This document shows, in pieces, positions 25,139-28,236 of a DNA stretch of 64,000 nucleotides. Each line of letters starts with the position of its first letter. Within the stretch, counting starts at the first letter, position 1. Both the position numbers and the translations under genes were made by a program. The notes under the pieces are model-generated. The model ran no database searches, was not told the DNA's origin, and saw only the letters and a list, made by a program, of their open reading frames with translations. Source of the DNA: Klebsiella phage phi1_146015; sequence record PP889466.1; one strand, given 5' to 3'.

Positions 25139-27385
25139 TTAGATTTTGACTTCTTTTTCTTCCAGGACGATTTCACATTCGAATGATGTGGTTTCCCAGA
25201 CTTTCCAGAAATCGGATGGAATATTATCTTCTTTCGGAAGAATATCTTTTGCAGCGATAGAAACTTTGGTTTCTTCGAAGTCCAGATCCGCGAACCATGC
25301 ATGTGCTACTACAACACCGTACATTACGCGACTTAAACGGGCATTCAGTTTACGGACTTCCTGAATCGTTGCCTTTGTCTGCTTATCAAGATACTCGACT
25401 ACCTGATCTTTGTCAAGCGCATCCAGTTCAGATTTCACCTGATCGTAAGCCCACAGGATAATCAGGTCGCCGTTGTTCAGTTTCTTCTTACCTTCGTCAC
25501 GCTTCGCGACGGTAGCCGCTACAGCAGGAAGGGAGGAAACGCCCTTGATTTTCACGTTCAGTTCTTTCGACATGTAAACATCAGTCGAATCTGTACGCTC
25601 AACCTTCGGAGAGAACCCGTAATCACGAATACCCTGTTCAGACAGCCATTCACCCGCAGCCTCACCAAAGCGCTGTTTCAGCCCTTCTGCGTTGCGCAGT
25701 CCGATCGCGTTGTCACGGAAGAACTTCATAACCTTCTGACGGCCTTTCAGGATTTCCAGGCGCACGTTATCAGTCACGAACTCTTTACCGCTTAACCCGC
25801 GAGTCATGCCACGGTTAACCAGAGGCAGAGAGGTAAAGTCTACCAGAACAGACATACGATCATCACCGATTTTTTCGAGTGGCTTGATAGTCAGGCCAGA
25901 AGCACGAAGGTTTTTCAGTGTCGGAATATCGGTTTCCAGCGGCAGAACTTTAACGTTCACGATACCATCTTTAACGATGGTGAAGTTACGCACCTGCTTA
26001 GTTTCGACTTTTTCCGGCAGACCGAATTCTTTCTGTTTGCTTTCTGGGATAGTCACATACCCTTCCAGATCCGTGTTGATGGAAATGTTCGGACGGGAAC
26101 TGTTACCCACCAGATGTTTAACCGATACTTTGGTTGTGGTTTGGGTAAATTTCGGTGTCCAGACTTCATGCGCTACCATTTGCGCCGCCAGTGCTTTACG
26201 TTCTTCTGGGGTTGCAGCGTTTGCGATCTGTTCGGTCAGTTGATCCAGTGTATCATCTTCTTTCTGTACAGTCTGACGGCCTGTGCGGTTATACGCCCAG
26301 TGCTCAGAAGACAGGTCGATCACTGTGTCAGTTTGTGCCAGCAGTTCGAGCGCATCAACCAGAGTGAACGCGTTTTCGTCTGGAACCATGTTGTAATCAA
26401 TACCATCAACGAAACGCTGTGATGGATCTACAACAGCCTGTGCAATCAGGTCTTTCGCGTTGGAGTAGTCCTGTTTGGTAAAGCAGTTGTCATACGCTTT
26501 GATCAGACGGACATCACCCAGCTTTTGAAGCACTTTCCATGCCAGATCAGGGTTCATTGTGTGCAGTGCATGATAAAGCACGACATACAGAACTTGCTGT
26601 TCGCTGGCGATGTTCGGATCGAAACCGTCAACATCATTGATTGCGTTGTCACCCAGCGCCCAGATGTTTTTGATGTGTTCTGGAACCAGCACAACACCGT
26701 TTGCAGCGTTCAGGACATACACGCGCCCTTCGTCCAAGTAGATCGCATGGGTAGCATCAGCAACTTTGACTTCGATACGTGCGGAAGTCTGTGCAGTGAT
26801 GATTTCGTTAAATGCTGGTTCGTATGCGTCGAAACCTTCAACGAATTTGTGCAATGCGTTGGTTGCTTCTGCCATTTTTTCCAGCAGAGGACGGTTTACA
26901 TAATAACCGTATTCCAGGAACGCGATACTGTTGAAAGTCAGTGGCAGAACCGCACACGCTTTCAGAATATCATCGGTACGCCAGCAGTTATCATAACCGT
27001 CTGTCAGGAAGATCAGGCTGTTCAGGTTGCCGTTTTCGGATTGCAGATCGGTAGCGATTTCCGCAGCCAGATTCAACGGCTCAACGAAGCCAGTACAACC
27101 CGTAGGTTTCAGGTAACGGTCGATAGCCGCGCAGATGTTAGACAGGTCAGAGACATTGCTAACCTTCTCACCACGGAACACCGTGCCGTAATCGCCTTTG
27201 CTGGAGAAGTACAGGATCGAAACGGTGTCATCCTGTTTAACCAGACTCGCCAGATTTGCTTTCAGGTGTTTACGGATCTTAGGCAGTTCGTTGTACATTG
27301 AACCGGATACGTCACACACGAAAACGTGGTTTGTCGGGGTTGGCTTCGATACAGCGTTTTTGAATTCGATATTTGTGATTGACAT
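25139..27385 (-). CDS. large von Willebrand factor A (vWA/MIDAS) domain protein
   Basis: 748 aa. The N-terminal VFVCDVSGSMYNELPKI is a canonical MIDAS DxSGS motif. About 550 aa of unrecognised C-terminal sequence follow. Confidence 0.6.
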   Translation of the reverse strand: MSITNIEFKNAVSKPTPTNHVFVCDVSGSMYNELPKIRKHLKANLASLVKQDDTVSILYFSSKGDYGTVFRGEKVSNVSDLSNICAAIDRYLKPTGCTGFVEPLNLAAEIATDLQSENGNLNSLIFLTDGYDNCWRTDDILKACAVLPLTFNSIAFLEYGYYVNRPLLEKMAEATNALHKFVEGFDAYEPAFNEIITAQTSARIEVKVADATHAIYLDEGRVYVLNAANGVVLVPEHIKNIWALGDNAINDVDGFDPNIASEQQVLYVVLYHALHTMNPDLAWKVLQKLGDVRLIKAYDNCFTKQDYSNAKDLIAQAVVDPSQRFVDGIDYNMVPDENAFTLVDALELLAQTDTVIDLSSEHWAYNRTGRQTVQKEDDTLDQLTEQIANAATPEERKALAAQMVAHEVWTPKFTQTTTKVSVKHLVGNSSRPNISINTDLEGYVTIPESKQKEFGLPEKVETKQVRNFTIVKDGIVNVKVLPLETDIPTLKNLRASGLTIKPLEKIGDDRMSVLVDFTSLPLVNRGMTRGLSGKEFVTDNVRLEILKGRQKVMKFFRDNAIGLRNAEGLKQRFGEAAGEWLSEQGIRDYGFSPKVERTDSTDVYMSKELNVKIKGVSSLPAVAATVAKRDEGKKKLNNGDLIILWAYDQVKSELDALDKDQVVEYLDKQTKATIQEVRKLNARLSRVMYGVVVAHAWFADLDFEETKVSIAAKDILPKEDNIPSDFWKVWETTSFECEIVLEEKEVKI

Positions 27386-27724
27386 TTAAATTTTCTCGTA
27401 TTTGAATTTTTCTAAAATTTCGTTAACTTTATTGCTTACTGCTTCGACTGTACGATCACACCCGAACTTACGCGCCAGGAGTTCAACGTATTCATCCATC
27501 GTAGTGAGTTTGGATTCAGCAACGTCAAACGCAAGCGCATACATTACCGGATTCCATACCCGAACGATTTGGAGAGTATACTCGTTCAGTTCAAAACGTT
27601 CAAGATATTTTCGCAAAGAAAATACATCAAACGGCGCGGGACGATCCTGGCTAAAGGGGATCGACTCCCCTAATGCATAGCGAGGCATAACAACACAAAC
27701 TTCTGTTTTCAGTTTATTATCCAT
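27386..27724 (-). CDS. hypothetical protein (cotranscribed with vWA gene)
   Basis: 112 aa. Stop/start abutting both neighbours. Confidence 0.45.
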   Translation of the reverse strand: MDNKLKTEVCVVMPRYALGESIPFSQDRPAPFDVFSLRKYLERFELNEYTLQIVRVWNPVMYALAFDVAESKLTTMDEYVELLARKFGCDRTVEAVSNKVNEILEKFKYEKI

Positions 27725-28236
27725 CAGTGATGACTCTTTGATGTGTGTTCAAGGTTACGGAAGATGTTTCCATGTTCCAGTTGAGTTCCGATCGGACCGC
27801 ATTCATCGGAGTACGTGAATTCATAGATAAACACGCCGTCCTGATTGCCGAACTTCGTGTTGTACTCTTCGTACAACCACATTTTGATCAGAGCGTCTTT
27901 CTCTTCTGTTTCAAGATCGTACCAGTCTCGCCCGTCATACGCAAGCGCAATTTGAGGATTTGAACGGTAACGGGTTTCTGCGCTTTCTTCGGTTTCCCAG
28001 TCATATCGTTTATCGTCGTAGAACGATTCAAAGCTATTACCCAGATGACCGCCTAAGTCACGGTGAACGTGGTTGACCACTTCTTCGGATGATAGCGGGG
28101 GATCGTAGTAACCACAATCAGGGACGCAATCGCCCATCATTTCGCGCAGGTTGTCGATATTAGTCGGATCTTTCGGGAACCGGACGATGAAACTACTTGA
28201 TGAACTATTGCTCACAAAACCAGAACGGATTTTCAT
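27724..28236 (-). CDS. hypothetical protein, MKIRSGFVSNSSSSSFI N-terminus family (paralogue A)
   Basis: 170 aa, first gene of the vWA operon. Confidence 0.5.
   Translation of the reverse strand: MKIRSGFVSNSSSSSFIVRFPKDPTNIDNLREMMGDCVPDCGYYDPPLSSEEVVNHVHRDLGGHLGNSFESFYDDKRYDWETEESAETRYRSNPQIALAYDGRDWYDLETEEKDALIKMWLYEEYNTKFGNQDGVFIYEFTYSDECGPIGTQLEHGNIFRNLEHTSKSHH

Follow-up and report, generated by a model that had tools for sequence, protein, structure and literature searches.

MoxR-vWA pairs, the ternary systems in which a vWA protein is joined by a kinase and a phosphatase, and the TerF and TerY proteins of phages and bacteria share a von Willebrand factor A (vWA) domain with a MIDAS (metal ion-dependent adhesion site) as a metal-dependent peptide-binding unit, and vWA systems of the MoxR, ternary or Ter type are also found in large phages (PMC7824862; bioRxiv 10.1101/2021.03.02.433402). 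Among individual proteins, ArnB and ArnE of Sulfolobus and 4fx5 of Catenulispora acidiphila are prokaryotic examples in which a vWA domain is combined with a beta-sandwich and a helical region, an arrangement related to the Sec23/24 core. The T4-like phages have had an entry of their own since 2006, when RB43ORF119c was listed as a vWA-containing novel open reading frame (ORF) (PMC1524935). Here we describe a member of that family from a 64,000-nucleotide (nt) stretch of Klebsiella phage phi1_146015 (PP889466.1), referred to below as the window. The protein is 748 amino acids (aa) long, and an original prediction, made from the letters of the window, had placed its gene at the end of a three-gene operon, after genes for proteins of 170 and 112 aa, as a candidate novel phage system. 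We find that this ORF belongs to a very large, almost phage-only family encoded as a single autonomous gene, and its product may act alone, inside the infected cell, as a metal-dependent binder.

A large phage family encoded as a single gene

A tblastn search detected the vWA protein in 503 phage records, with full-length homologues of approximately 700-800 aa. The gene is carried by Karamvirus, Pseudotevenvirus, Slopekvirus and a few other Straboviridae, by Ackermannviridae infecting Salmonella, Escherichia, Dickeya, Serratia, Klebsiella and Erwinia, and by Pootjesviridae (Rhizobium phages) and others, while many further contigs of 100-450 kb carry it in IMG/VR. A cellular search returned 13 loci in 185,579 species-representative genomes, mostly on contigs of metagenome-assembled genomes, and the family is therefore essentially phage-restricted. 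One cellular case, a 178-kb contig of a Flagellimonas marina assembly (NZ_JBHSCL010000010.1), is 99% identical to the window phage type at the vWA locus and probably represents contaminating phage DNA, judging by this match; two other cellular loci have ORFans or PHROG families of unknown function as neighbours. The window protein shares 99.7% identity with deposited proteins and approximately 90% with those of the RB43 group, and it is of the same family as RB43ORF119c and PHROG 2426, with no difference from them. PHROG 2426 is annotated as "unknown function" and its members have been deposited in hundreds of genomes as "VWFA domain-containing protein" or "hypothetical protein"; our literature search found no paper giving the PHROG 2426/RB43ORF119c family a function. 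A gene catalogued in this way does not qualify as the novel phage system first suggested, and what survives of that suggestion is that a genuine, large vWA/MIDAS protein lies outside the canonical T4 gene set.

The three predicted ORFs are present, on the minus strand (Table 1), and it is their association that does not last. All three genes stay together only in phages whose vWA protein is at least 80% identical. By tblastn, the 170-aa gene occurs in 174 phage records, which equals the number of records with a vWA protein at or above this identity, and in none of the 329 further phage records with a vWA homologue below it. In Pantoea phage Phynn (Straboviridae, vWA identity 69%) a homologue of the 112-aa gene abuts the vWA gene, and the 170-, 208- and 157-aa genes are absent. 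The 112-aa family lies directly upstream of the vWA gene in 12/12 T4-like loci, Phynn and the locus L011 included, and was found at none of the non-T4-like vWA loci examined, even by iterated profile searches. Among the loci examined, only those of Karamvirus, Slopekvirus and RB43-type phages and L011 have the 208-aa gene downstream. The three genes are thus not co-conserved beyond the closest relatives, contrary to what a dedicated operon had implied.

In sampled loci of Ackermannviridae, Rhizobium phages and jumbo phages no partner gene adjoins the vWA gene. In the Ackermannviridae a different small ORF precedes the vWA gene and an acyl-carrier-protein-like gene follows it, and Nampt and Prs genes lie farther upstream; a relationship of the 112-aa protein to these upstream ORFs was considered and rejected (hhalign probability 0.03%). 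In Salmonella phage pertopsoe (L002, 2280-7565), for example, genes for ribose-phosphate pyrophosphokinase and nicotinamide phosphoribosyltransferase are directly followed by the vWA gene and then by an acyl-carrier-protein-like gene (PP-binding, E 9e-5), a neighbourhood that is not kept in other clades. At other loci the next-door genes encode a transglycosylase, topoisomerase II, a GIY-YIG endonuclease, a Macro-domain protein or a sigma factor, and clustering of the immediate neighbours gave 48 unrelated groups upstream and 55 downstream. A link to nicotinamide adenine dinucleotide (NAD) salvage, suggested by the Nampt and Prs genes of the Ackermannviridae and by an NMNAT-Nudix gene in the window, was likewise rejected, the neighbours in other clades being unrelated. 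The absence of an adjacent AAA+/MoxR, kinase or phosphatase gene, remarked on in the original prediction, was borne out: none is annotated within approximately 8 kb of the vWA gene in a 97.7%-identical relative, and no MoxR, kinase, phosphatase or Ter gene stands beside the family in any clade examined. With no partners in distant clades and unrelated neighbours in their place, the vWA gene is therefore an autonomous unit. In T4-like phages the 112-aa gene may serve as an accessory specific to this lineage, perhaps encoding a subunit. The 170-aa gene comes from a different family and is an unrelated passenger, and the metagenomic phage loci reached through its homologues contain no vWA-family gene within 8 kb.

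The tight packing of the genes is real but extends beyond the three. Start/stop overlaps had been reported at 27724 and 27385; the first holds, the 170- and 112-aa genes overlapping by 1 nt (TGATG), while the second is a direct abutment without overlap (TAAATG). Upstream, the 77-aa ORF and the ORF preceding it both end in a start/stop overlap (ATGA), and on the downstream side 4-nt overlaps link the 208-, 63- and 157-aa ORFs in a chain. As coupling reaches past the three genes on both sides, and the closest terminator-like sites bracket approximately 11 genes, the "three-gene operon" is an arbitrary slice of a longer co-directional array and reflects local gene packing in one T4-like group.

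Architecture and proposed role of the 748-aa protein

The protein has the alpha/beta Rossmann-like vWA fold, and its AlphaFold2 model has a mean predicted local distance difference test score of 87.7. The Pfam models VWA, VWA_2 and VWA_3 match residues 21-176, barely above their gathering scores (28.7 vs 27). The textbook MIDAS read from the DVSGSM motif is complete (D25, S27, S29, T98 and D129) and recurs across 50 homologues down to 32% identity, with T98 and D129 unchanged in all of them and D25, S27 and S29 conserved in at least 90%, so that selection evidently acts on the metal site. No catalytic or enzymatic motif was found in the protein.

The approximately 550 aa that had been set aside as unassignable can probably be reduced to approximately 400. 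In the model, residues 1 to ~350 resemble the arrangement of ArnB, 4fx5, ITIH and Sec23-24, with a vWA domain, a beta-sandwich and helices, so that some 150 residues (~196-350) can be tentatively assigned to an ArnB/Sec23-24-type beta-sandwich and helical region. The remaining C-terminal module is modelled as beta-rich with long helices, including a helical hairpin at 638-692. Residues 413-636 are basic (isoelectric point 9-10), in contrast to the otherwise acidic protein, and the best-conserved stretch of the entire protein, exceeding the MIDAS loops, lies at residues 581-620 (GIRDYGFSPK...STDxYMSKELNVKIKGLSSLP). Pfam left the C-terminal ~400 aa unmatched in the window protein and in all 50 family members, and Pfam and NCBIfam searches with C-terminal fragments gave no match at E up to 10. 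When the PDB was searched by sequence and by profile, the full-length protein, the family profile and the profile of the C-terminus returned vWA-region matches or noise only, and Foldseek against BFVD with the full-length model returned the protein's own family and generic vWA matches only. A mapping of the C-terminus to a known head or tail protein, which would have spoken against a novel module, was not found in PDB, BFVD, Pfam or the profile searches, and neither PADLOC models nor solved anti-defence proteins matched the vWA protein. A profile of the C-terminal module against 1.84 billion representatives gave 1307 clusters at 50% identity, 750 of them at E <=1e-30; among the best 150, nearly all are proteins of 700-820 aa with the module at the C-terminus, and the two halves thus form an obligate, fixed architecture.

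From the conserved MIDAS, the basic C-terminal module, the lack of enzyme motifs and partners, the restriction to phages and the location of the gene, we infer an intracellular stoichiometric binder. The gene sits in a leftward-running series of small accessory ORFs and is encoded on the other strand from the baseplate genes beside it, and the protein would be made inside the infected cell from this early-type array without becoming a virion component. Through its cation the MIDAS would bind an acidic side chain on a target protein, and the basic C-terminal module could hold a second, negatively charged partner, either protein or nucleic acid, which would tether or sequester a factor of the host or of the phage. 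We give a probability of roughly one half to this reading as a whole, namely that the protein is a non-virion, metal-dependent binder or sequesterer acting alone, from an autonomous phage family with an ArnB-like N-terminal module and a C-terminal module of its own. The protein may act in anti-defence or sequester a host factor, the latter being compatible with this reading.

Several points weigh against the binder reading. The fold searches used the whole model, in which the vWA domain may mask a distant match of the C-terminal module. The timing of expression is inferred from position and strand alone, and promoter scans were no better than with shuffled sequence, the sigma-70 scan performing at chance level. 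A scan for the MotA-box pattern near the block gave no exact match. The exact T4-type late promoter (TATAAATA) is also without a match near the block, which says little, as an exact match is missing from the window's own baseplate genes too. Additionally, homologues in three listed records carry the automated label "minor tail protein". Such a label agrees with a role in the virion or its assembly, as a low-copy tail or baseplate protein with a vWA adhesin or as a vWA co-chaperone of tail assembly. The gene does lie within 3 kb of the baseplate block in T4-like phages, vWA domains are known from pilus-tip adhesins, and an archaeal virus has a MoxR-vWA pair that helps to assemble its tail (PMC7824862). 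However, the gene and the baseplate genes are on opposite strands, there is no MoxR neighbour, PHROG 2426 has no structural annotation and neither PDB nor BFVD yielded a structural-protein fold. The Ackermannviridae context is one of nucleotide/NAD metabolism and acyl-carrier-protein-like genes rather than structural genes, and virion mass spectrometry of Vi01-like phages recorded 1 peptide of the vWA homologue vs 196-311 for abundant particle-associated proteins (PMC10892097). This single peptide does not exclude a low-copy virion protein and so counts against our preferred reading too; overall we regard a virion or assembly role as improbable.

A Ku- or TROVE-like role is another alternative, in which the basic C-terminal module would grip DNA or RNA while the vWA domain recruits proteins. 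The charge of residues 413-636, which include the most conserved segment, is in keeping with this, as are a domain order (vWA, beta-rich region, long helices) loosely like that of Ku70/80 and INTS13/14 and the topoisomerase II neighbour at some loci, but no nucleic-acid-binding Pfam domain was detected and ArnAB, the closest solved relative, is reported to have shown no direct binding to DNA (PMC12852372), which makes this an unlikely role. A third alternative concerns the locus and not the fold: the 170-, 112- and 748-aa proteins would work together as the components of a single dedicated system, such as an anti-defence module. The tight junctions, a gene order that is constant across the 174 records, the two head-motif paralogues (described below) that flank the vWA gene in these phages and the counter-defence-type genes within the same array all fit such a system. 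Yet the coupling runs into genes on both sides, Phynn retains only the 112-aa gene, the Ackermannviridae, Rhizobium-phage and jumbo-phage loci have no partner near the vWA gene, loci rich in the 170-aa family lack a vWA gene within 8 kb, and no PADLOC or defence-related match was obtained; we consider it very unlikely.

PHROG 2426 is among the larger fixed-architecture families of big lytic phages still without a function, and it is present in therapeutic-candidate phages of Klebsiella, Enterobacter, Cronobacter and Salmonella. The autonomy of the gene, its probable non-structural role and the putative ArnB/Sec23-24-like core narrow the experiments needed to find the target of the vWA protein.

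The accessory array and its head-motif proteins

The window derives from a Karamvirus/RB43-type T4-like phage with 97-98% identity to known genomes and a G+C content of ~0.45. The 4.7-kb block around the vWA gene matches 176 phage records, with 97-98% identity to Cronobacter phage vB_CsaM_leB, Enterobacter phage HK6 and others. The wider leftward array includes genes at 29780-30688, 32217-33239, 33224-34009, 34681-35748 and 43197-44594 (all on the minus strand) for a Dcm-type cytosine methyltransferase, an RlaP-like nucleotidyltransferase, a homing-endonuclease-like ORF with a NUMOD-like motif, a fusion of nicotinamide mononucleotide adenylyltransferase and Nudix domains of NAD-salvage type and a PIN-PhoH protein. 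The methylase, the nucleotidyltransferase and the Nudix fusion agree with the placing of the block among anti-defence-type accessory genes.

A hairpin had been predicted to follow the operon at about 25110-25130. It is real and stable (folding free energy -17.7 kcal/mol, z -3.25), with 1 of 200 shuffled sequences folding as well. It has no U-run on the coding strand and lies 17 nt upstream of the ATG at 25097, and therefore marks no clear operon end. The closest upstream terminator-like hairpin is likely to be the upstream limit of the transcription unit. The two hairpins have a common CCCCGAAAGGGG core, with a U-run only after the upstream one, and may represent a recurring intergenic RNA element of this phage.

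Table 1. Features of the vWA locus in the window, with related sites on other contigs.
Feature	Position	Strand	Remarks
Intrinsic-terminator-like hairpin, then TTTTTT	28947..28964	-	Good U-run; closest upstream site
77-aa ORF	28233..28466	-	Stop codon overlaps the 170-aa start (ATGA)
170-aa protein (phrog_7397)	27724..28236	-	Head MKIRSGFVSNSSSSSF; C-terminal motif YSDExG...EHGNIFRN...SHH
112-aa protein (phrog_7677)	27386..27724	-	Abuts the vWA start codon
748-aa vWA protein (PHROG 2426; RB43ORF119c homologue)	25139..27385	-	ORF list, homology, AlphaFold2 model
vWA domain, residues ~18-195	26801..27334	-	MIDAS D25-x-S27-x-S29 encoded at 27299-27313; T98 and D129 complete it
Beta-sandwich (residues ~200-245) and helical domain (~248-350)	26336..26800	-	Resembles ArnB / 4fx5 / ITIH / Sec23-24
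Family-specific C-terminal module, residues ~351-748	25142..26335	-	Beta-rich, basic core; no Pfam/NCBIfam/PDB-sequence match
GC-rich hairpin GCCCCC-GAAA-GGGGGC, GAAA tetraloop	25114..25131	-	Within the 41-nt spacer from vWA stop to next gene
208-aa protein (phrog_7309), downstream neighbour of vWA gene	24471..25097	-	Start ATG 25097 from PHROG alignment and ribosome-binding site
157-aa head-motif paralogue	23813..24286	-	Only the 16-residue head in common with the 170-aa protein
Weaker terminator-like site	23356-23383	-	Closest downstream site
Head-motif sites elsewhere	L099 5248-13585; L097 7481-9998; L102-L181		

The 170- and 157-aa proteins begin with the same 16-residue head, MKxRxGFVSNSSSSSF, encoded at 28189-28236 and 24239-24286 (both on the minus strand). 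In the form MK[IY]R[SN]GFVSNSSSSSF it heads 828 protein clusters in a database of 5.8 billion sequences and occurs in at least 120 IMG/VR stretches. Head-motif proteins are small (median 130 aa) and are often encoded in tandem arrays of 2-12 copies, with up to 12 within an 8-kb stretch. Radical SAM genes, which are candidates for processing enzymes, lie near the motif genes of L097 and L100. The parts that follow the head are diverse: 172 tails of at least 38 residues, from members of at least 60 aa, form 67 unrelated clusters, some with CxxC pairs, and these tails matched no Pfam domain and nothing in the PDB. The head is conserved at the protein level, as its serine and arginine codons vary freely between copies, and conservation at the DNA level was rejected on the same observation. 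No paper turned up when the literature was searched for the motif string. Approximately 80 motif-bearing contigs were listed, and only one of them, of the window phage type, is also among the 80 best vWA loci.

Some members deserve separate mention. The 157-aa paralogue is labelled "head-tail adaptor" in a related record on the strength of a weak, partial phrog_132 match (E 2e-9, residues 77-148), which is probably a misannotation because the gene is located in an accessory array. A 40.7-kb metagenomic phage contig (L099) combines a 12-copy head array with genes, at 3636-5168 and 13589-14510, for a DUF2828/DUF7788 protein and for a large protein matching the major vault protein domains Vault_3 and MVP_shoulder; vault-like components in a phage contig would be unusual. 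In a 56-aa metagenomic protein (P0400) the head is fused to an apparent ClpP C-terminal segment (Pfam CLP_protease match), which suggests that it can be joined to arbitrary fragments.

The head is a candidate targeting or recognition tag, modification site or part of a small catalytic centre. Internal proteins of T4 carry a short capsid-targeting N-terminal peptide on unrelated bodies and are encoded in tandem variable arrays, and the head is likewise a short, near-invariant N-terminal peptide on unrelated bodies in such arrays. Unlike the T4 capsid-targeting sequence, it has no (L/I)xE protease cleavage site and has spread far beyond T4-like phages. As a recognition tag, the head would direct small effectors of many kinds to one shared outcome (modification, delivery or packaging, for instance), and the vWA protein encoded nearby in T4-like phages might serve as the receptor of such a tag. 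The family is huge and uncharacterised, may be more novel than the vWA finding itself and may represent a strategy of its own, so far unrecognised, by which phages arrange small variable proteins in arrays. A comparably novel reading of the vWA protein is that of a new kind of MIDAS-dependent trap, which would disable a conserved host factor or immune sensor and, if true, would account for the spread of the vWA family over unrelated large lytic phages. We hold these readings, the trap and the recognition tag, to be speculative and improbable.

Relation to known vWA systems

With MoxR-vWA pairs, ternary systems and TerF/TerY the window protein has the vWA/MIDAS unit in common, and it differs from the MoxR-vWA chaperone pair in that an adjacent MoxR-type AAA+ gene was not seen near the phage vWA gene in any clade. 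Inter-alpha-trypsin inhibitor heavy chains (ITIH) and bacterial VIT-vWA proteins are also among the closest known systems. Against TIGR03788 ("marine proteobacterial sortase target") the phage protein scores 25.4 bits vs a cut-off of 551.65, over residues 12-130 only, and Pfam detects no VIT domain in it. Ku70/80 is similar in the vWA domain, whereas the DNA-encircling beta-barrel and helical arm that would extend the structural similarity beyond it are not seen in the phage protein. The closest likeness, drawn from the model, is to ArnB, ArnE and 4fx5. In comparison with ArnB and 4fx5, the phage protein is twice as long, has a 400-aa extra module and is only 14-15% identical in sequence, and, unlike that of ArnB, its gene has no ArnA-like zinc-finger/FHA partner, kinase or phosphatase alongside it, either within ~8 kb in the close relative or in the other clades. 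Overall, the phage family combines a putative ArnB-type core with a C-terminal module of its own, encoded in a gene that travels alone.

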